Origin: Candidatus Micrarchaeia archaeon
GTDB lineage: Archaea > Micrarchaeota > Micrarchaeia > Burarchaeales > JACRGF01
DNA length: 64,000 nt
NCBI GenBank assembly: GCA_038870455.1
Contig: JAWCPB010000001.1
Location: 3,734 to 67,733, forward strand
Direction of reading: 5' to 3'
The notes under the pieces were generated by a model. It was not told the origin of the DNA. It saw only the letters and a program-made list of their open reading frames with translations, and ran no database searches. This document shows positions 4,047 through 54,789 of this stretch, one piece after another (position 1 is the stretch's first letter; every line of letters begins with the position of its first letter). The position numbers were made by a program, and so were the translations under genes.

Positions 4047-5345
4047 TCACCTCGGCTTGAGGCGGCCCCACTTGGCGAGCGCGCGAGCGAGCTCGGGATG
4101 CCTTTTTGCCTTTTCCTCAAGGCTCTCTCCTTCCATCACCGCCTCGATGGCTTGCCTGAGCGCCTTCGCGCCAGCGCGCGTGCCATCGGGGTGGCCGTGA
4201 ATTCCTCCGCCTGCCTGAATGATTATGTCGCTTCCGAAAATTGACATCACGTCCGGCACAAGGCCCGGGTGCAGCCCTCCTGAAGAGACGGGAAACACGG
4301 GCTTGAGGCCGAACCAGTCCTGCGAGAGGTTGAGCGGGAGACTTTCATCCACCTTCTGCTTTGTAATCACTTCCTGAATTCGCTTTACTTCCTCCCTCGT
4401 TCCCACGAGCTTTCCCACGGCTGTCCCTATGTGAAGCTGGTCGACTCCAACAAGCCTGAGGAGCTTTGCCAGGCAAAGCATGCTCACCCCGTGCTTCGGG
4501 TTTCTCGTGAAAGCCGCGTGCATGGCCCTGTGCGCGTGAATGGCCAGCCCATAATCCTGGCAGGCTTCGCGCGCTGTCTGGAGTCCGGCAAAGCCGGCCG
4601 TCACCACATCCACCATGGCGTATTCCCATCCCAAGTCATACAAGAGTTTTGCCCTCTTCAGCATTTCCTTTGTTTCCGCAGTGATGTTGAGGAGCGCGCT
4701 CTTTCGCTCTCCCGTCTCCCTCTCCGCCCTCGCCCTCATCTTCGCGCACAGCCTGACTCTCTCCTCGAACCGGTTGAACTCCAGCGAAGTCAGGTTTTCA
4801 TCGTCCTTGACCAAGTCTATCCCGCCAGCCCAAGCCTCGTATGCAACCTCAGCGTGTTCTTTCGCCGAAAAGCCGACTTTAGGCTTTGGGACTGTCGCCG
4901 TAATGGATCTCTTCGGCTCCCTGAAAATCCTTCTTACTCCGGCTATGCCGAACTGCGGTCCTCTGAAGGCCCGCACATATTCTTTCGGCAGCGTGATGTC
5001 AATGAGCCTGAGATTGGCGAGCGCCTTCATCCCGAAAATGTTTCCGGCCACCCCGCTCAAGAGCTGCGGCGCGTTTCCTTTTTCCCAAAGCTCAAGCGGA
5101 TAACACAGTTTCGCAAGGCTTCCCTTCACCTCGAAAGCCATGCCCTTGAGCCTCTTTATTCTGGGCGGCAGCCGCGCGAGCGTAGTCCAGGTCCCCACCG
5201 AGCTCTCGGAAGCCATCCTGCCGAGCGCCTCGTCGCGCGCGATGCCTTCGGCCGGCTCGAAGTAAAAGAGCGCAACTAGGTCGCTTTTCGCCGGCCTTTC
5301 CCCAAAATCAACGAATTCCTCGTACCACTCGATTTTTCCTGCCAC
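4047..5345 (-). CDS. rbcL: ribulose-1,5-bisphosphate carboxylase/oxygenase large subunit, archaeal form III
   Basis: 432 aa. Carries the KPKVGFSAKEHAEVAYEAWAGGIDLVKDDENL catalytic-lysine region and the GGGIHGHPDG loop-6/C-terminal motifs of RbcL. There is no small subunit, and the length fits form III. Confidence 0.9.
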   Translation of the reverse strand: MAGKIEWYEEFVDFGERPAKSDLVALFYFEPAEGIARDEALGRMASESSVGTWTTLARLPPRIKRLKGMAFEVKGSLAKLCYPLELWEKGNAPQLLSGVAGNIFGMKALANLRLIDITLPKEYVRAFRGPQFGIAGVRRIFREPKRSITATVPKPKVGFSAKEHAEVAYEAWAGGIDLVKDDENLTSLEFNRFEERVRLCAKMRARAERETGERKSALLNITAETKEMLKRAKLLYDLGWEYAMVDVVTAGFAGLQTAREACQDYGLAIHAHRAMHAAFTRNPKHGVSMLCLAKLLRLVGVDQLHIGTAVGKLVGTREEVKRIQEVITKQKVDESLPLNLSQDWFGLKPVFPVSSGGLHPGLVPDVMSIFGSDIIIQAGGGIHGHPDGTRAGAKALRQAIEAVMEGESLEEKAKRHPELARALAKWGRLKPR

Positions 5346-10401: not shown

Positions 10402-10525
10402 AGCCCCGTCGTCTAGCGACCCTTTTTCGTCGAAACGAAAAAGCGTCGACGGAAAAAGGTCGGGCAATGGCCAAGGATTCGAGGCTTTGGACCTCGAGAC
10501 GTCGGTTCGAATCCGACCGGGGCTA
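10402..10525 (+). tRNA. tRNA-Gln (anticodon UUG) with ~51-nt intron in the D-loop
   Basis: Acceptor AGCCCCG (10402-08) pairs with CGGGGCT (10518-24); A1:U72 is typical of archaeal tRNA-Gln. D stem GTCT / GGAT. Anticodon arm CGAGG-CTTTGGA-CCTCG with anticodon TTG at 10487-89. T arm GTCGG-TTCGAAT-CCGAC. Removing 10417-10467 (itself a long hairpin) gives a 73-nt mature tRNA. No encoded CCA. Confidence 0.8.
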
Positions 10526-16867: not shown

Positions 16868-17048
16868 GGGCCGGTAGATCAGCGGTAAAACCCTTTTCCG
16901 ACGCTTCGGAAAAGCGTTTACGGAAAAGGTTTCGCGTGAGATCGCCGCCTTCGCATGCCTCTCTGGGATCAGAAAAAGGCGGAGGCCAGGGGTTCAAACC
17001 GAACCGCGGGAACTAGTCCGGCGGTTGGTGAAAATCCCCTCCGGTCCA
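16868..17048 (+). tRNA. tRNA-Ala (anticodon CGC) with three introns (D-loop, anticodon loop 37/38, T-loop)
   Basis: Acceptor GGGCCGG / CCGGTCC with the G3:U70 Ala identity pair. D stems GATC (16877-80 and 16940-43). Anticodon arm CCGCC-TTCGCA[21-nt intron 16956-16976]A-GGCGG. Variable AGGCC. T arm AGGGG-TTCAAA[~36-nt intron 16999-17034]T-CCCCT. The D-loop carries an ~50-nt insert (about 16887-16936). The spliced product is near-identical in its stems to canonical archaeal tRNA-Ala. Confidence 0.75.
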
Positions 17049-33831: not shown

Positions 33832-35049
33832 GTGGCACAGGCTGAAGTGAACATAGGAATGCTCGGGCACGTCGATCACGGAAAGACTGCGCTAACCCAC
33901 GCGCTGACCGGCGTCTGGACTGACACGCACAGCGAGGAAATCAAGCGCGGCATCACCATAAAGCTCGGCTATGCCGACGCCGTCTTCCGCAAATGCCCCA
34001 AGTGCGGCGAGCCCCAGGCCTTTACAACAAAGGAAAAGTGCCCAAAATGCGGCTCGGCCACAGACGTTCTCAGGCGCGTTTCCTTCATCGACTCGCCGGG
34101 CCACGAGACGCTCATGACCACAGCCATCGCGGCCTCAAGCGTCATGGACGGGGCGCTTCTCGTCATCGCGGCGAACGAGCCGTGCCCCCAGCCTCAGACG
34201 CTCGAGCACCTCATGGTGCTTGACATCCTCGGCGTGAAGAATGTCATCGTCATCCAGAACAAGATAGACCTTGTGTCGAGAGAAAAAGCGCTTGAGAACT
34301 ACAACCAGATTAAAAAATTCTTGAGCGGCACTGTGGCGGAAAACGCCCCGGTCATTCCGGTCGCGGCAAACTATTTCGCGAATCTGGATCTCGTCATCCA
34401 GGCCATCGAAAAGCACATTCCGACTCCCAAGCGCGACGCGGGCGCGCCCTTCCGCATGTACGTGGCGCGCTCTTTCGACGTTAACAAGCCCGGTACGGAT
34501 ATAGACAAGCTCGTGGGCGGGGTGGTCGGCGGCTCCATCATACAAGGCACGGTGCGCGTGGGAGACGAGATTGAGCTGCGTCCTGGAATTTCAAGGGGCG
34601 CCGAGAAGGAGGGCAGGGAACCCTCGCACGAGCCCATCGTCACGCGCGTGGAGAGCCTGAGCGTTGGAAGCGAGAGACTGGAGGAAGCGCGGCCCGGCGG
34701 CCTCGTGGCCATCGGCACCCGCCTCGACCCGGCCCTCACAAAAGCCGATTCCCTTGTCGGCAACCTCGTGGGCAAGCCCGGCACGCTGCCCGAGCTCGTC
34801 AGTGAGGCGGAGCTTGATTTCGTGCTGCTCAAGCGCGTCGACCTCGAAAACCCGCCGCTGAGGCAGAACGAGCCGCTTGTGCTAAGCGTCGGCACGACAA
34901 CAGCCATCGGCTTCGTGGATAAGATAAAGAAAAACATCCTGTCGCTCAAGCTCAAGCGTCCGATCTGCGCCAAAAAGGGAAGCAAGGTCGCGCTCTCCCG
35001 CCGCCTGGGCCAGCGATGGCACCTCGCCGGCTACGGCACGCTGCGCTAA
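33832..35049 (+). CDS. eif2g: translation initiation factor aIF2 gamma subunit
   Basis: G1 GHVDHGKT, a zinc ribbon (CPKCG...CPKCG), DSPGHE and NKID motifs, and domains II/III. Confidence 0.95.
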   Translation: MAQAEVNIGMLGHVDHGKTALTHALTGVWTDTHSEEIKRGITIKLGYADAVFRKCPKCGEPQAFTTKEKCPKCGSATDVLRRVSFIDSPGHETLMTTAIAASSVMDGALLVIAANEPCPQPQTLEHLMVLDILGVKNVIVIQNKIDLVSREKALENYNQIKKFLSGTVAENAPVIPVAANYFANLDLVIQAIEKHIPTPKRDAGAPFRMYVARSFDVNKPGTDIDKLVGGVVGGSIIQGTVRVGDEIELRPGISRGAEKEGREPSHEPIVTRVESLSVGSERLEEARPGGLVAIGTRLDPALTKADSLVGNLVGKPGTLPELVSEAELDFVLLKRVDLENPPLRQNEPLVLSVGTTTAIGFVDKIKKNILSLKLKRPICAKKGSKVALSRRLGQRWHLAGYGTLR

Positions 35050-35097
35050 CGCTAATCTCCAATTTTGCAAGCCGACGAAGTCATCGTTTGGTTCTGA

Positions 35098-35769
35098 TTA
35101 GCAGATGCTCGTGAAAGTCACGTTCTGCGAATAAGTCCCCGGGGGCGTGCCGGAAGGGGGCCTGAGCTGGAAGTACGCCGTGAAAGAGCCCGAGCCGACG
35201 AGCGAGTAGTACACCGTCGCATCGCTTTCCGCCAGCAGGCTCTTTGAAGCAAACGGTACGCCGCTCTGGTTCGCCCACCGCGTGGCGTTCGCGGGCATGC
35301 TTTTCCCCGCATCGGTCCAGTTCGTTCCCCTAACCAGCACGTCGGCCGCCTGCACCACCAGCCCCGGAACCTCATCGCCGTAGCCCGCGCCGCTCACCAC
35401 GCTTCCCGAAATCCGCAAGCCCGCCCCCTTCTCAACGAAAAAAACGTAGGACCACCCGCTCCAGCTTTCAACGCGGGAATTCTCCACGAGCAGGGATGCG
35501 TTTCCGGCCACGCTCACAGCGAATTCCCCGTCGCGCGATGCATTGACCAGCAGCGTGACGTTCCTCAAAACCAGTTTCCCCGTCACGTTCAGGTTCCCGT
35601 TCAGCACCACCCCGCCGTCCGCGCACGCCTGTTCAGTCGGTACAATCCAATCGCCTTTTTCTGGCGGAGCGCATCCCGACGGCGGAAGCACCGCGGCCGC
35701 GTAAACCTTTCCCCTCGGAGCGGGTTGCAGCAGCCCCGCGCACCCGGCGAGCACGATTGCAAGCGCCAT
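35098..35769 (-). CDS. secreted lipoprotein-like protein with beta-helix-like repeats, hypothetical
   Basis: LAGCAG signal/lipobox. Repeated NxT sequons and GxxxV repeats suggest a right-handed beta-helix. Confidence 0.45.
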   Translation of the reverse strand: MALAIVLAGCAGLLQPAPRGKVYAAAVLPPSGCAPPEKGDWIVPTEQACADGGVVLNGNLNVTGKLVLRNVTLLVNASRDGEFAVSVAGNASLLVENSRVESWSGWSYVFFVEKGAGLRISGSVVSGAGYGDEVPGLVVQAADVLVRGTNWTDAGKSMPANATRWANQSGVPFASKSLLAESDATVYYSLVGSGSFTAYFQLRPPSGTPPGTYSQNVTFTSIC

Positions 35770-39973: not shown

Positions 39974-40413
39974 GCAACTCCACCATGTTTCAAAAAACTA
40001 TTAGATTTTTCTAATAATCTTTTTGCATTTTCAAAAGTAAGCTTCTCCAAAGCCTTTTTGAAAGGCAGCCACTCAAAACCAATATGCTCAAAAGAAAGCT
40101 TGACCTCCTTTTGTTTTGTCTCAGCGAGCTGGAAATAAACAGTCTTGGCAACCGTTTTTCCTTCTCTTCTAAAAAAATATTTGAGCTTCTCGCGAAAACC
40201 CGGAACAAATTCCACATCAGTTATTCCAGTTTCCTCCGCGATCTCCCTCCTCGCCGTCTCCTCTACGCTCTCGCCTTTTTCAATCTTCCCCTTTGGAAAA
40301 TCCCAATGCCCTTCTTCATAATGCAGGATGAGGTAGAGGATCTGCCCACCTTCTCTCCTGAAGACAATCGCGCCTGAAGAAAACTCGAGCGGCACGTTGC
40401 TCTTTTGATTCAT
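39970..40413 (-). CDS. NUDIX hydrolase
   Basis: Nudix box GKIEKGESVEETARREIAEETG. Markedly AT-rich relative to its surroundings. Confidence 0.85.
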   Translation of the reverse strand: MNQKSNVPLEFSSGAIVFRREGGQILYLILHYEEGHWDFPKGKIEKGESVEETARREIAEETGITDVEFVPGFREKLKYFFRREGKTVAKTVYFQLAETKQKEVKLSFEHIGFEWLPFKKALEKLTFENAKRLLEKSNSFLKHGGVA

Positions 40414-40568
40414 AACTTTTAAATTCCTGGATGTCCGCGCTGACAGAAAGTTAGGAAGCTTTTAACACCACTTCAGTAAACTCATTATCAAGTCTGGTTT
40501 TTTCAAAACTTCTTATGGTTCACTGCTACAGTGTTAAGCGGGTTTTATGGCACGTGGAAGCACGCTTA

Positions 40569-41855
40569 TCAGGTGTTTGAGCTTAAAGATGGGCAATGTC
40601 CTTTAATTAGTTTACTGATACGGTATTCCCAGGCACATTCAATAAAACGAGCTATAATTATTGCGGAGTTTTGAATGGCCCGTGGAACGAGTACGTTTGC
40701 CTGCTTAAAGCATTCCTCATCGCTTAATTTTCCAATTTTATTTTGATACGGATCAGTGCCGGGCACATCAACGCTCCTGAACTCTTGCGTCTCTCTTGCC
40801 ATATTGTCAACAAAATCAGCGAGTTTTTCCATAGCATTCTCCCAAGTCCAGCTGGGGTTCTCTTTCGGCGGTTCTAGGGGACCGCTATCCCAAATAGTTA
40901 TGTTCATTTTTCCCCTTCCGCGCCTAATATCAGGATAATCCCTCTTCTTTAGCCATTGCTCGAGCGAATCGAGTTTTCCAAAAAATACCGTTGGACCATG
41001 AACATCATTGTGCACATGGGCGGGCACGTGGAGATCGGCTATAAGATGGAGGATGTGGCCGAGCACGCAAAAGGCCTCTGACTTTTCGCCATTCGCATAC
41101 AGTTCCATCCCCCAATGCCAGAAAATTTTTATCCTGTCAAGCGCGCTCTGGAATCTGATTTCTCCATTTTGAATGTTCAGTCCCCTGTCTCCCTCGGCGC
41201 GCATAGGATCGTAGAAGTGACCCATGTACGGTCTGTTGATGGGATCGGCTTCAATCGCCTCACCTACCATTTTCTTCCATAATTTAGCAATACCCATAAA
41301 AATTCCTTGAAGCGGGCCGATCTTCTGGTTCAAATAGCGCTGAGCAAATTCTCTACCACTTTTGAAAGGCTCAGATGGTGCCTTAACAAACAGATCCTCA
41401 AGCTTCTCACCGGGTCTGAAAATGTAGTCCTCTGCCAGCGCACCCACCATTATCTGCCAGGTGTGCTCAATGGCTTCTGGCTTGCCACTCAGTTTGGCAG
41501 CGTGAAAGGCTATGTACTCGTGGCAGGCTCCGTCAGCATGGCGAAGTTTTGCCACTTCCCGCTGAGCCGCGAAAATGTTGTATGGAGGAATTTCCTGCCA
41601 TTTCGCAATCTTTCTGCTCAATCCATCTGGCAGTGGGCCCGTGCTAAATTTCAACACTGAAGTGAGAGGTCGGCTTTCAACCTCAACAAGGGGAAGGCAT
41701 TTTGCAAATGCGTGCGCTGGCTGAAGGGAAGGTGGAAAGAGTCTATCAAAAACTTGGTTAATCTTTCCAACAAAGTTTTCGAATTTTCTATTTACTTTCT
41801 GTTTGGCCTCCCCCCTCATGAAATTATTTTTCTCGCCAGAGTATTTAAAGGACAT
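40569..41855 (-). CDS. zinc-dependent phospholipase C-like protein
   Basis: Motifs GHFYDP and HILHLIADLHVPAHVHND resemble the Zn-coordinating H/D residues of bacterial PLC/alpha-toxin N-domain (DHFWDPD, HYFGDIDTPYH). Lower GC than the neighbouring genes. Confidence 0.5.
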   Translation of the reverse strand: MSFKYSGEKNNFMRGEAKQKVNRKFENFVGKINQVFDRLFPPSLQPAHAFAKCLPLVEVESRPLTSVLKFSTGPLPDGLSRKIAKWQEIPPYNIFAAQREVAKLRHADGACHEYIAFHAAKLSGKPEAIEHTWQIMVGALAEDYIFRPGEKLEDLFVKAPSEPFKSGREFAQRYLNQKIGPLQGIFMGIAKLWKKMVGEAIEADPINRPYMGHFYDPMRAEGDRGLNIQNGEIRFQSALDRIKIFWHWGMELYANGEKSEAFCVLGHILHLIADLHVPAHVHNDVHGPTVFFGKLDSLEQWLKKRDYPDIRRGRGKMNITIWDSGPLEPPKENPSWTWENAMEKLADFVDNMARETQEFRSVDVPGTDPYQNKIGKLSDEECFKQANVLVPRAIQNSAIIIARFIECAWEYRISKLIKGHCPSLSSNT

Positions 41856-41870
41856 CCATGATTATAGTGC

Positions 41871-42437
41871 ATGAAGAACTTGCTCATAGTGCTGGCCGTG
41901 CTTCCGCTCGCCGGCGCTTCCGTGAGCGATGTGAAATTTTCGTTCATTGACAGCAGTGGAAACAAGGTTGATTTTTACCCGGCTGGTTATTCTGGAAAAG
42001 TTTCGGTCAGGGCTGAAATCAGCGACGCGGCGTATCCCGAGTGGGTGGCTGGCGAGGTGAGATATACCTTAAGGTGCGAACTCATTGACCAGAATGGAAC
42101 CAGGCTCAGGCTTCCGGAGGCGATGATTGGATGCATTGCCATCAGCGGGCCCGGTGTGTTGAAAAACTGCAGGAAGGAAGTCTCTTTCGAATTCAGGGCC
42201 GAATACGTGAAAGGCGGGAGCGTGGAATGCTTTCTTGACGAGCAAAAGGCTTTTTCGAGCACTATCCCGTTTGCGCAGTTTGTCTCCCAGCCGCCCGTAC
42301 AGCCTCCAGCACAGCCGGCCGTACAGCCTCCGGCTCAATATCAAACGCAGCAGGGACCGGTCTGCTGTGCTGGCATAGGCCTGCTACTCCTCGGGTTGTT
42401 TTTGCTTTGTTCCGGGGAGGTGGATTGTCCTTCCTAA
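41871..42437 (+). CDS. secreted protein with C-terminal hydrophobic anchor, hypothetical
   Basis: Signal peptide LPLAGAS, a PPVQPPAQPAVQPPAQ linker, and a C-terminal TM. ~54-nt convergent overlap with lpdA. Confidence 0.45.
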   Translation: MKNLLIVLAVLPLAGASVSDVKFSFIDSSGNKVDFYPAGYSGKVSVRAEISDAAYPEWVAGEVRYTLRCELIDQNGTRLRLPEAMIGCIAISGPGVLKNCRKEVSFEFRAEYVKGGSVECFLDEQKAFSSTIPFAQFVSQPPVQPPAQPAVQPPAQYQTQQGPVCCAGIGLLLLGLFLLCSGEVDCPS

Positions 42438-52022: not shown

Positions 52023-53567
52023 CTACTTTTTTCTTCCCTTAAACAACACCGCTAGGTCTTCCTCAATGCTGGCGGTGCTCTTCTCGCTTTCGGTGAGCTT
52101 TCCCTCGATTTTCTCGCGTCTCTCCTCGAGCCTGCGCAGCCTCTCGCCAGCGCTCCTACCGCCCTCCATCTGCTTGAGCAGCTCCTCAAAGCGCGCGCTG
52201 ATTTCCTTGCTTTCCTGAATCATCTGCGCCAGGCTCTTCTTGGCAGCATCGGCCTTGGCGTTCAGCGCCTCTTCCTTCTTGAGCACCTGTTTGACCTCGT
52301 ACTCATGGCTCTCGCTGAGCTCCTTGAGCTCCTTCAGGTACTTCCGCACGAAGCCCGTTTCCACGGCTTCCCTCAGGGCATTGAACTCGCTCTCGTTTTC
52401 CTTCACGTACGCAGTGAACTCGCCGAACTTCCTCTCGTACTCCTTTTGATAAGCGCTTATCCATTCATCGACCTTGCGCAGCTCGGCGATGGCCTTCTCG
52501 AGTTCGGCCACGCGCGCGTTCTCGCCATGCAGGCGTGCCCTAGCGTCGTCAATGCGCTTCTTGGTTTCGGCCTCGCTCTGCTTGAGCTTGGCGAGCGTTT
52601 CCTCCATGTCCTTTATTCTCGCGTTCTCAAGCTCGATGCGCTCCCGGGCTTCCTTGATGTGCGCCTTCGTCTCGCGCTCGATGTCGGACAGCCTGGCGAG
52701 CGCGTTCTCCATGTCGTCAAGGCTGGCCGTCTCCTTGGCGATGGTCTTCCTCGCCTCCTCCGAGCTCCTGGTCACGCCGGCCTGCAGCTCGCGCAGCAGG
52801 CTCACGGTCTGCTGTATCTTGCCGGTGGTCTCGTCGAGCGCCTTCCTGGCCTCCTCCTCCTTCTGCTTCAGCTTGAGCACGTCCAGCTCGACATTGCTTA
52901 TCATGTCCGGAATCTCGATGGCCCTCTGGCGCAGGCGCAGAATCTGCGTTTCCTTGGCCTGCAGGCGGTCTTCGAGCGCCTCCAGCTCGGCCTCGAGCCT
53001 TTTTGCAATGGGCAGGTAGGCATCACGCACGAGAGTTTCGCGCTCGCTCTTCAGCTCCTCAATCTCCTTGGCCTTCTGGTTGATTTCGGAAATCTTCGCC
53101 TTGAGCGCCTCGGACAAATCGACTATCTCCTTGGGCTTGGCCTCGCGCGCCGGCGCGGGCGTCTTGGCCTCAGGCTTTGCCTCCTCGGCCTTGACCGGCT
53201 TCTTTATCTCCTGCTGAATTTCCTTTGCTGACGAGAGAAGCCTCTCGAGCTTTTCCTCAAGCTGCGGCTTTTCCCTCGGCGCTACGGCCTGGGAGAGCGT
53301 CGGGAGCCTCGCCTCGCCCTTCCACACGGCGTAAGCGCGCGTGAGGTGATACTCTATCCTGACGAGGCCCTGTTCCTCGAGCACGCGGCACCACTTCTCG
53401 ACATCCCTCGTCCCGAGGCCCGTGCCCTTGGCGAGCTCGCTGACCTCGACGCGTCCCTTTTCCTTGAGCAGCCTCAGCACCCTGTCCACGTCAGTGCTGA
53501 TGAAAGCATCTTCCTTCGTCACGCAATCCCCCCACACATCAGAACCAACCGATGACTTTTCCGTCAA
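52023..53567 (-). CDS. winged-helix plus long coiled-coil protein, hypothetical
   Basis: N-terminal wHTH-like region (VLRLLKEKGRVEVSELAKGTGLGTRDVEKWCRVLEEQGLVRIE), then ~400 aa of heptad-repeat coiled coil. TTG start inside repeat copy 1, so the true start is uncertain. Confidence 0.6.
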   Translation of the reverse strand: MTEKSSVGSDVWGDCVTKEDAFISTDVDRVLRLLKEKGRVEVSELAKGTGLGTRDVEKWCRVLEEQGLVRIEYHLTRAYAVWKGEARLPTLSQAVAPREKPQLEEKLERLLSSAKEIQQEIKKPVKAEEAKPEAKTPAPAREAKPKEIVDLSEALKAKISEINQKAKEIEELKSERETLVRDAYLPIAKRLEAELEALEDRLQAKETQILRLRQRAIEIPDMISNVELDVLKLKQKEEEARKALDETTGKIQQTVSLLRELQAGVTRSSEEARKTIAKETASLDDMENALARLSDIERETKAHIKEARERIELENARIKDMEETLAKLKQSEAETKKRIDDARARLHGENARVAELEKAIAELRKVDEWISAYQKEYERKFGEFTAYVKENESEFNALREAVETGFVRKYLKELKELSESHEYEVKQVLKKEEALNAKADAAKKSLAQMIQESKEISARFEELLKQMEGGRSAGERLRRLEERREKIEGKLTESEKSTASIEEDLAVLFKGRKK

Positions 53568-53620
53568 CGCTTTTGCCGGATCGCCGGCAAAAGGGTTGTA
53601 TCGTTGGTTCCGATACCTCC
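53557..53620. repeat. 64-nt double-hairpin element, copy 1
   Basis: TTTTCCGTCAACGCTTTTGCCGGATCGCCGGCAAAAGGGTTGTATCGTTGGTTCCGATACCTCC. Hairpin 1 is CTTTTGCCGG/CCGGCAAAAG; hairpin 2 is GTATCG/CGATAC. Confidence 0.8.
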
Positions 53621-53673
53621 GAACCGCGGGAACCTACGGTTCCCCCAGTTCCAGGTTCCTCCTGACCCCTCCC

Positions 53674-53737
53674 TTTTCCGTCAACGCTTTTGCCGGATCG
53701 CCGGCAAAAGGGTTGTATCGTTGGTTCCGATACCTCC
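53674..53737. repeat. 64-nt double-hairpin element, copy 2 (identical)
   Basis: Exact duplicate of copy 1, separated by a 53-nt spacer that itself contains the hairpin GGGAACC/GGTTCCC. Followed by TTTTT. Confidence 0.8.
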
Positions 53738-53741
53738 TTTT

Positions 53742-54272
53742 TCATGCAGCGCCCGCAGGCGCGGCGATTATCGAAAACCTCCCGGGAAGCTTGAGCTTTG
53801 CCCTCCTCAATGCTTCTCTCGCGTGGCCAGCTTTCTCGGAAGTGGTTGAGAGGCGAAAGATCACCTGCCCCCTGTGCACCCTCGCCCCCCTGTCCGTGGG
53901 CCTGCCGTAAGCATGACGCATGCCCTTCTGCAGGCGGTCAGCACCCGCGCCCAGAATCATCTTGTTCTCGCGGATGACGTTATGCGGATAGACATCCACT
54001 TTCAAGAAATACCCGCCCGGAAGCGTCTTCTCCAAGTACTTGTTGGCAGCCTGCCGGGCGCTCTCAAGCGCATTGTCCCTCACCTGCACGCCCTCCTCGG
54101 CGACAAGACGGAAGAGCGAGTCGAAAGCAGGGTTCGCCTGTCCCATGGCATAAATACTGACGGCGTTGTGCGGCAGGGCCTTTACGAAGCTCTTTCTGGG
54201 CATTTTCTTGGAGTACCTGGTCCAAGCCGCTTTGTTCAAGCTCCTGCAGGTTCTCGCAGGCCGAAGGCCCAT
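53742..54272 (-). CDS. rpl10e: 50S ribosomal protein L10e (uL16)
   Basis: MGLRPARTCR..., NKMILGAGADRLQKGMR, RVHRGQVIF, and ALRRAKLKLPGR match uL16/L10e. Confidence 0.9.
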   Translation of the reverse strand: MGLRPARTCRSLNKAAWTRYSKKMPRKSFVKALPHNAVSIYAMGQANPAFDSLFRLVAEEGVQVRDNALESARQAANKYLEKTLPGGYFLKVDVYPHNVIRENKMILGAGADRLQKGMRHAYGRPTDRGARVHRGQVIFRLSTTSEKAGHAREALRRAKLKLPGRFSIIAAPAGAA

Positions 54273-54369
54273 GATAGACACCTCTATTCACAAAAGGCGT
54301 GCTAACATTAGCCGCGAGGCATATATAAAGATAGCGATTTCGTGCGCTTCAAACCACACGGCTCCACCA

Positions 54370-54789
54370 TCACGCTTTCCGTATGCTGGCGATTATCCTC
54401 GAGGTCTTGAATATCCTGCCGTTCAGGCGCTCCCTGATCTTCACGAGCCTTATTCCTTTTTTCCTCAGATTGGCGAAATCGCCTATGGGCTGGTCGTAGC
54501 CGAATGCTATTATGTCGGGCTTAACGCGCCGGACCACGGCGAACTTGTCGCGCGGGCTTCCGATGACGACCTTATCCACGGGCTTCAAGGAGGCGACTAT
54601 GCGCGCCCTGGCTTTTGCGGAGTGAATGGGCTGCCTTTTTTTGACGCGCCTAACCGTGGCATCCGCCGCGATGACCACCACGAGGACGTCGCCGAGCTTC
54701 TTCGCCTTCTCGAGAAAGAAAACATGGCCCGGATGCAGGATGTCGAAAACACCGCCCGTGAGTACGACTTTTTTCTTTTTCCCCGGCAT
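54370..54789 (-). CDS. cytidylyltransferase-family nucleotidyltransferase, probable FAD synthase RibL (or PPAT-like)
   Basis: VVLTGGVFDILHPGHVFFLEKAKKLGD resembles the archaeal RibL / (H/T)xGH nucleotidyltransferase family. Confidence 0.7.
   Translation of the reverse strand: MPGKKKKVVLTGGVFDILHPGHVFFLEKAKKLGDVLVVVIAADATVRRVKKRQPIHSAKARARIVASLKPVDKVVIGSPRDKFAVVRRVKPDIIAFGYDQPIGDFANLRKKGIRLVKIRERLNGRIFKTSRIIASIRKA

Follow-up and report, generated by a model that had tools for sequence, protein, structure and literature searches.

In a 64,000-nucleotide (nt) stretch of the genome of a Candidatus Micrarchaeia archaeon (assembly GCA_038870455.1, contig JAWCPB010000001.1, positions 3,734 to 67,733; hereafter the window), the ribosomal protein gene rpl10e is followed by an intergenic block that holds a perfectly duplicated 65-nt element. 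This block is probably a selfish or neutral nested insertion of dispersed hairpin repeats, which belong to two families and have recently been duplicated in part. One family, E1, would be the conserved 5' module of a bulge-helix-bulge (BHB) intron family that lives in tRNA and rRNA genes as well as in intergenic DNA. The other, E2, would be a hairpin repeat that is often found beside tRNA genes, and the block that they form would have no locus-specific function.

Both modules are dispersed far beyond this locus. E1 is a 43-nt module with the consensus XYAC-C-CUUUU[variable apex]AAAAG-C-GUY'X'-ACGGAAAAG. A covariance model, R1, built from 67 E1 copies that all come from other genomes, scores 53-55 bits at exactly four places in the window, namely two tRNA introns and both copies of the 65-mer, and the next best site scores 14.6 bits. 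The two copies in the block (53556-53598 and 53673-53715, minus strand) are matched over the full model length (1-43) at 53.1 bits each (E = 4.2e-11). The motif AAAAGCGTNNACGGAAAA occurs four times in the window against 0.06 occurrences expected. When one genome per GTDB species was scanned with a gapped pattern, E1 matched at least 116 genome stretches. The E2 pattern GGAGGTATCGGAACC-N(0-30)-GGTTCTGAT matches at least 120 metagenome contigs and no viral contig. A reading of the window from its letters alone (the sequence-only reading) had listed a miniature repeat element among four candidate interpretations, and had held that many dispersed copies would speak against a local functional element. 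Such copies were found for both modules, and the miniature repeat is the candidate that they support.

The block is an insertion, because the spacer downstream of rpl10e measures 219 nt here and only 21 nt in the closest relative, the sister genome GCA_038890815.1, which has the same gene order and a downstream protein that is 83% identical. The sister spacer reads TGA-GAGCCAGTGGGAGGTGTTCGC-ATG, and a 40% identical relative has a 50-nt spacer that is also free of E1 and E2. Since the sister spacer is short and the native GTGGGGGGATTGC-GTG is still present downstream of the insert, the insertion that separates the stop codon from the native Shine-Dalgarno (SD) sequence amounts to about 206 nt (53741-53536).

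The duplicated element and the composite block

A repeat search of the window places the two copies at 53556-53620 and 53673-53737, with 100% identity over 65 nt, a start-to-start distance of 117 nt and 52 nt between them. The sequence-only reading had described 64-nt copies with a 53-nt spacer, so that the identity stands and the lengths do not. All three of its hairpins are present: CTTTTGCCGG-ATCG-CCGGCAAAAG at 53570-53593 and 53687-53710, which extends to 15-nt arms with one mismatch; GTATCG-TTGGTTC-CGATAC in both copies; and a third in the spacer between them. The T5 run that it reported also exists (53738-53742, plus strand), but the plus strand is antisense to every neighbouring gene, and on the minus strand the run reads AAAAA and precedes GGAGG. 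All neighbouring genes lie on the minus strand, the sense strand of rpl10e and of the downstream gene, and this is the meaningful strand for the duplicated element. Besides the strand, that reading had overlooked that its 64-mer is a chimera of two unrelated modules (22 nt beginning with GGAGGTATCGGAACC, followed by E1) and that a third piece, at 53555-53538, closes the outer hairpin. A search that allowed up to 3 mismatches found no further occurrence of either half of the 65-mer in the 64 kb, and 100 shuffles likewise gave 0.

The upstream gene had been correctly named rpl10e (Table 1), and an independent contig carries its exact 176-aa product. The downstream gene starts at GTG 53522-53520 (minus strand), and its translation is identical over 499 aa to NCBI QXH27_00310 from a Candidatus Micrarchaeia metagenome-assembled genome (MAG); a search of 5.8 billion sequences yielded only 4 homologues. 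It had been taken for a winged helix-turn-helix (wHTH)/coiled-coil gene; no Pfam wHTH match was obtained, and the wHTH label comes solely from a reading of the N-terminus. An assembly made independently from run SRR27730040 shows the same junction of the L10e stop with AAAAGGAGGTATCGGAACCAACGATACAACCCTT, and its contig breaks inside the repeat, as a true repeat would lead one to expect; the duplicated element is therefore not a MAG artefact.

Table 1. Features of the window, and E1 sites of the sister genome, by position (genes and modules of the block in sense order)
Feature	Position	Strand	Sequence or evidence
rpl10e coding sequence, upstream flank of insertion	53742..54272	-	Pfam Ribosomal_L16 3.3e-28; stop TGA 53744-53742
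E2 5' half, copy A	53723..53737	-	GGAGGTATCGGAACC; exact 15-mer common to L014, L050 and at least 120 metagenome contigs
AACGATA linker, copy A	53716..53722	-	extends E2 stem or closes 6-bp hairpin GTATCG/CGATAC
E1, copy A	53673..53715	-	CAAC-C-CUUUUGCCGG-CGAU-CCGGCAAAAG-C-GUUG-ACGGAAAAG; R1 53.1 bits
Spacer S, degenerate E2	53621..53672	-	GGAGG...GGGGGAACC-GTA-GGTTCCCGC; directly after E1, as in L083, L126
Copy B	53556..53620	-	E2 5' half 53620-53606, linker 53605-53599, E1 53598-53556; identical to copy A
Tail T	53538..53555	-	TCATCGGTT + GGTTCTGAT; E2 3' half 53546-53538, extended stem; starts directly after copy B
Native translation signals	53520..53537	-	GTGTGGGGGGATTGC, then GTG start 53522-53520; aligns with relative's GTGGGAGGTGTTCGC-ATG
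Truncated E1-tail/E2-3'-half junction	35070..35098	+	GACGAAGTCATCGTTTGGTTCTGAT; 20/21 identity, E = 1e-4 within window
tRNA-Gln(UUG)	10402-10525	+	one 51-nt D-loop intron 10417-10467; Rfam sees 3' part 10469-10525 only, 29.3 bits
E1 opening tRNA-Gln intron	10417..10457	+	R1 54.7 bits
tRNA-Ala(CGC), G3.U70	16868-17048	+	three introns; undetected by ARAGORN and by Rfam at gathering threshold
tRNA-Ala introns	D-loop 16888-16939; after anticodon loop 16957-16977; T-loop 16999-17034	+	
E1 opening first tRNA-Ala intron	16888..16928	+	R1 53.3 bits
E1 sites in sister genome, L012	5-114 (23S, tandem, 66-nt period); 4661-4701 (16S)	-	

On the sense strand, the block reads E2 5' half, E1, degenerate E2, E2 5' half, E1 and E2 3' half. 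The 14-nt core of spacer S, GGAACCGTAGGTTC (GGAACC-GTA-GGTTC), is the commonest E2 apex, with loop GTA. Tail T carries the E2 9-mer 10 nt past copy B and can pair with the E2 5' half of either copy; in the minimum free energy fold the half of copy A is used, so that the pair encloses the whole block. E2 lacks its usual short apical loop here, the loop being 59 or 176 nt long because E1 is inserted in it. Intermediate loops occur at other loci (cited by L numbers), with 32 nt in L050, 44 nt in L167 and 17-25 nt in others. In L167, an E2 with a GGAACC-AAC...GATT-GGTTC stem extension like that of the block and a 44-nt apical insert has the architecture of copy B plus tail. The order of E1 followed by E2 recurs in L083 and L126 and, by coordinate comparison, in L219 and L161. 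The composite exists at least twice in this genome, since a truncated copy of its internal junction (Table 1) fills most of the 48-nt spacer between the convergent open reading frames (ORFs) 33832-35049 (+) and 35098-35769 (-).

The minus strand of the block folds at -124.1 kcal/mol (z = -6.7) and the plus strand at -103.6 kcal/mol (z = -5.5). A BHB scan, which did not model relaxed BHL motifs and whose top hit was the tRNA-Gln intron, returned candidates at background level only for either strand of the block; the block is intergenic, and its removal restores no functional RNA or ORF. Rfam 15, searched with E up to 10, gave nothing relevant for the region; positions 53000-54400 matched best to ylbH, whose 16.6 bits (E = 1) compare with a gathering score of 50. 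For the whole window at the gathering threshold, it gave a single tRNA fragment. The sequence-only reading had also considered a structured small-RNA locus; apart from the lack of an Rfam match, the same modules sit in tRNA and rRNA genes elsewhere. ARAGORN found no tRNA or tmRNA in the region, and the second hairpin fails as an anticodon or T arm, having no U33, C56 or purine 37. Small RNAs and elements of the C/D box, H/ACA, K-turn, hammerhead, pistol, integron attC, IS200/IS605 end and triplex types were rejected as well, their defining boxes being absent and Rfam reporting none.

From this arrangement a likely history can be outlined. Lying on the coding strand of both flanking genes, the block would be carried in any mRNA that spans them, where it is predicted to fold as one closed multi-hairpin domain with an outer E2 stem that joins both flanks. 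It would remain unspliced, because it has no BHB motif, and would be tolerated by its position upstream of an intact SD sequence and by folding back on itself. The sequence-only reading had left the perfect identity to recent duplication or to strong constraint; the 65/65 match is better attributed to recent local duplication or gene conversion than to constraint. RNA-mediated movement such as reverse splicing, hairpin- or single-stranded-DNA-mediated movement, and recombination are candidate routes by which E1 and E2 may have spread.

E1 in tRNA and rRNA genes

Both copies in the block have the full E1 structure, with a CAAC/GUUG basal helix of 4 bp, a C.C mismatch, a CUUUU...AAAAG helix and the tail ACGGAAAAG. 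The basal helix covaries strongly. X and Y are the two nucleotides upstream of CCC, and their partners X' and Y' were left free by the search pattern. In the alignment of 67 sequences, X-X' is GC in 21, UA in 17, CG in 15 and AU in 14 and is never unpaired, and Y-Y' is formed in 65; both pairs are Watson-Crick in 123 of the 128 distinct copies listed, against a shuffle mean of 19. The sequence of the apical stem varies freely between copies. X and Y were also considered as target-site nucleotides copied at insertion, which was rejected since X is the first nucleotide of the intron and does not belong to an exon. By their titles, the records that bear E1 belong to Micrarchaeia, Aenigmatarchaeota, Iainarchaeum, Woese-, Nano- and Parvarchaeota, Altiarchaeota, ANME-1/Methanophagales, Methanocellales, Syntrophoarchaeum and Thermoplasmata.

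Non-hairpin apical inserts, GCTCGCTCCAGATGGGCACGCTCG and CAGGAGCTNNCGCTTCC, recur in E1 across phyla (L006, L008, L057, L068, L076, L096 and L114; also L019, L024, L048, L074, L092 and L106) and suggest sub-families with conserved loops of their own.

The link to introns came from a BLAST of the insert within the window, in which short matches in two other spacers led to two tRNA genes missed by ARAGORN (Table 1). Once the presumed introns are removed, tRNA-Gln and tRNA-Ala fold as perfect cloverleaves in ARAGORN. The tRNA-Gln intron has a BHB, and its first nucleotide is the first nucleotide of E1; the same holds for the first tRNA-Ala intron, given the splice-site choice used. A strict BHB scan gave seven clear cases, including L017, L032, L033, L079, L093, L110 and the tRNA-Gln of the window, in which the 5' cut falls exactly before E1 nucleotide 1. 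The inner helix of the BHB is formed by a second, "distal" arm, AAAAGGGUY'..., while the conserved "proximal" arm and the ACGG tail lie in the loop. As an observation apart, positions 53619-53633 of spacer S match 16999-17013 (+) of the tRNA-Ala T-loop intron in 15/15 nt, on opposite strands relative to E1; from these sequences, the intron families appear to share arms rich in GAACC/GGTTC.

The contexts of the listed copies were classed by simple regular expressions and by ARAGORN, a program that overlooks disrupted tRNAs. Simple T-loop signatures place 56 of the 128 listed E1 copies within or beside tRNA genes in the sense orientation: 39 precede the T arm on its 5' side, the T-loop is interrupted by 12, and 5 stand just 3' of the tRNA. 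Among the same 128, a T-loop signature is found near E1 in the sense orientation 49 times and in the antisense orientation 7 times. Ribosomal RNA genes are occupied too. The sister genome has two tandem E1 copies (55.7 bits) within its 23S rRNA-aligned span and a third (36.5 bits) in the 16S span. Its 16S match covers 2136 nt for a model of 1478 positions, and the gene thus carries large insertions. A single tRNA intron with four tandem E1 units of 50-nt period was seen in L082 (7650-7837, +), a Candidatus Iainarchaeum MAG.

Resident copies can decay. The introns of tRNA-Gln and tRNA-Ala reach 53-55 bits in the window, whereas their orthologues stay below 10 bits in the sister genome and at 16.5 bits in L125; the host tRNA therefore does not need the conserved E1 motif. 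The sister introns keep the distal helix through compensatory changes despite the lost E1 score. Such decay is the pattern expected if conservation serves the propagation of the element itself.

The E2 hairpin

E2 is a hairpin of the form GGAGGUAUCGGAACC...GGUUCUGAU, about 27 nt long in its minimal version. It consists of the 15-mer 5' half GGAGGTATCGGAACC and the complementary 9-mer 3' half GGTTCTGAT, which pair with a G.U wobble, and this conserved wobble makes the hairpin strand-specific. The loop is usually GTA, GCA, TAA, GAA or 2 nt, and in most copies it measures 2-4 nt. GGAGGT belongs to E2, and the stem is kept through compensatory changes in the variants L186 and L133/L237. The exact 5' half occurs in loci of Woesearchaeota and Aenigmatarchaeota (L014, L050), each time followed by GGTTCTGAT; a regular-expression pairing of the two halves returned only these loci and the window among about 0.96 Mb.

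Among the distinct E2 copies listed, 73 of 122 are intergenic, and a tRNA signature lies within 130 nt of about 41% of the copies. Some copies are antisense and sit in tRNA T-loops or abut antisense tRNA 3' ends. In L195, L196, L158 and L200, E2 separates a complete tRNA from a repeated copy of its 3' end (T arm and acceptor), an arrangement suggestive of an integration footprint or of a duplicated 3' exon. Further small hairpin repeats near tRNA genes, such as CTATCGAGCGAAGCGAAGATAG and GCATCA...GATGATGC, were seen in genomes of these same kinds, in the flanks of L152, L204, L160, L141 and L081.

Tandem arrays of E1 or E2 are found in L082, L012, L149, L237 and L214. Those of E2 or its halves (L149, L237, L214) have periods of 74, 65 and 32 nt, and they are not CRISPR-like because their spacers are identical. 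Tight co-occurrence of E1 and E2 was rejected, since R1 matches only 6 times in 0.5 Mb of E2-bearing contigs. A viral origin was likewise rejected: E1 is present in just 2 viral contigs of IMG/VR and E2 in none.

Two general roles of E2 were tried and set aside. As a device that joins SD, hairpin and start codon, which L014, L169, L212, L232 and an in-frame GTG at 53537 had prompted, it fails because offsets to downstream ORF starts spread over 0-139 nt and the true start, GTG 53522, has an SD of its own. As a promoter, it has no TATA-like sequence, takes the form of a hairpin and varies in loop length.

Competing explanations and known systems

Several points weigh against the block as an insertion of selfish or neutral repeats. 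The mobility of E1 and E2 is inferred from their distribution only. No transposase or other hallmark of mobility turned up, although ORFs were listed at L083 and L065 only, where they are unannotated, and no systematic search was made. Direct duplications were not seen at the ends of the block, where the flanks read TGAAAAA and GTGTGG. The breadth of the families depends on scans whose figures are lower bounds among the matches listed, on a taxonomy taken from record titles only, and on conserved positions that were set by the search patterns. The single-stranded ACGGAAAAG and GGAGGU are conserved across phyla and the X-X' covariation is evenly distributed, which together look like long-term purifying selection on a functional motif. 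Lastly, according to Rfam, tRNA +1 lies 0-2 nt past E2 in L229 (twice), L142, L144 and L141, the 5' end of 16S lies 2 nt after E2 in L216, and these positions, with the recurring order of E1 followed by E2, hint at a punctuation or processing role here too.

Such a role is the main rival. It takes E1 and E2 for RNA punctuation or processing signals, E1 on the 3' side and E2 on the 5' side of RNA segments, that are recognised by a conserved endonuclease, ligase or chaperone and that would separate or stabilise the cistrons at this locus. Beyond the E2 positions just named and the single-stranded motifs kept across phyla, the rival could draw on the seven strict BHB cases in which E1 begins at the 5' splice site, on E1 copies 1-5 nt past tRNA 3' ends (L052, L080, L108, L115, L117), on the E1-then-E2 order of L083, L126, L219 and L161 and an E2-tRNA-E1-like order in L142 and L144, and on the G.U wobble, GNA triloops and compensatory variants (L186, L133/L237) of E2. 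We nevertheless regard it as unlikely. Of the listed copies, 73 of 122 for E2 and 66 of 128 for E1 show no tRNA signature or fixed relation to a gene end, the antisense E2 copies in tRNA T-loops and at antisense tRNA 3' ends fit a repeat at the DNA level better, the sister genome has the same gene pair with neither module, and resident E1 copies decay.

That the block acts between the two genes as an array of terminators or attenuators, one of the suggestions of the sequence-only reading, is distinctly improbable. The hairpins are stable, and some E1 copies with longer T runs directly behind tRNA genes could terminate transcription there. At this locus the longest T run on the sense strand is T4 (CCCUUUUG), the sole terminator-like match (53715-53733 plus CTCCTTTTTC) is on the plus strand, antisense to the flanking genes, and elsewhere transcription must pass through E1 where it lies within tRNA and rRNA genes.

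That the perfect duplicate arose in assembly is very improbable, given the independently reproduced left junction, a repeat length (65 nt) below that of typical reads and tandem E1/E2 copies in many unrelated assemblies; the MAG source and the break of short-k assemblies within the repeat are what would speak for it. Fainter still is the chance that the palindromes are DNA operators for autoregulation by the downstream wHTH-like coiled-coil protein; the sequence-only reading had named a protein-binding regulatory site for the downstream gene. Two identical palindromic sites 117 bp apart immediately upstream of a putative DNA-binding protein would suit that idea, but the sister genome has the orthologous gene (83% identity) entirely without the sites, the same palindrome family occurs in tRNA introns and in phyla with no detected homologue of this rare protein, the apical stem is free to vary, and the conserved G.U and C.C features are strand-specific. 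We give almost no credence to a 68-aa protein encoded in the block (53745-53539, minus strand) with an internal 39-codon repeat and coupled to rpl10e by an ATGA overlap: in its favour, the ORF is present, the spacing of its repeats is divisible by 3 and its start ATG overlaps with the stop codon of L10e; against it, the protein has no Pfam match, the NCBI model starts the downstream gene at 53522 rather than at the upstream in-frame starts, and the sequence of the ORF is made of E1 and E2, which elsewhere lie in introns of tRNA and rRNA genes and in every context and frame, its stop being the UGA of E2.

The insertion of dispersed repeats, the preferred explanation, has parallels in known systems. 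Non-canonical BHB introns in the tRNA genes of archaea (ARMAN-2/Micrarchaeum, DPANN and Thermoproteales) resemble E1, which opens introns at D-loop, anticodon and T-loop positions and is cut by strict BHB motifs exactly at its nucleotide 1. Unlike such introns, the 65-mer copies interrupt nothing and have no BHB, E1 spans many phyla and occurs also in rRNA genes, tRNA trailers and intergenic DNA, and its conserved part is the competing proximal arm with the ACGGAAAAG tail and not the BHB itself. Heavy disruption of tRNA genes and endonucleases of broad specificity are known from Micrarchaeota and other DPANN archaea (PMC3239211, PMC5829648).

Bacterial REP/BIME, Correia/NEMIS and ERIC repeats and archaeal miniature inverted-repeat transposable elements (MITEs) are likewise short, imperfect, multi-copy hairpins, mostly intergenic, arranged in tandem or nested arrays, co-transcribed with flanking genes and variably present among close relatives. 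In contrast to these, E1 and E2 showed no autonomous partner, RAYT-like transposase, target-site duplication or terminal inverted repeats beyond the hairpin arms (no systematic transposase search was made), their conservation crosses phylum boundaries, and E1 doubles as a spliceable intron. The E2 arms of the block form 9-nt inverted repeats, and these arms are also the hairpin itself. REP families are not known to show sequence conservation of that breadth. Spliceable mobile elements, such as IStrons and the introner elements of eukaryotes, are harmless in essential genes because the host or the element removes them from the RNA. E1, in tRNA, 23S and 16S genes, may be likened to them in concept; unlike theirs, its removal would use the BHB endonuclease and ligase of the host rather than a ribozyme or a spliceosome, and no associated transposase was found. 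Fujishima and colleagues are said to have proposed "tRNA intron transposition" for Thermoproteales in 2010 on the basis of similar introns in different tRNA genes (reference 29 of PMC3239211).

A wider proposal, which we hold tentatively and as possible rather than probable, sees in E1 and E2 two undescribed RNA (or single-strand) modules that are constrained in sequence and distributed over archaeal phyla. In that case, a mobile family of BHB introns would have E1 as its propagating 5' module, an archaeal equivalent of the introner elements that colonises tRNA, 16S and 23S genes and intergenic DNA, E2 would be a boundary hairpin of tRNA and rRNA 5' ends, and the locus would be a nested specimen in which each module is insertable into the other. 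Neither Rfam 15 nor text searches of the searchable literature, by sequence and by description, gave an account of either family, which is not proof of novelty.

The families touch the question of how archaeal tRNA and rRNA genes gain many non-canonical introns, and E1 offers sequences with which intron mobility and endonuclease specificity can be tested. That complete tRNA sets are not found in DPANN genomes is a practical problem (PMC5829648). E1 is a handle for hidden disrupted tRNA genes, as ARAGORN found 0 in the 64 kb and two were recovered by following E1. For annotation, perfect hairpin duplicates that look regulatory in such genomes may be dispersed repeats, and the rpl10e locus gives no ground for assuming that the downstream gene is specially regulated.

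Elsewhere in the window, positions 40001-42000 have a G+C content of 0.455 against 0.53-0.63 in the rest, and may represent foreign DNA around ORF 40569-41855.

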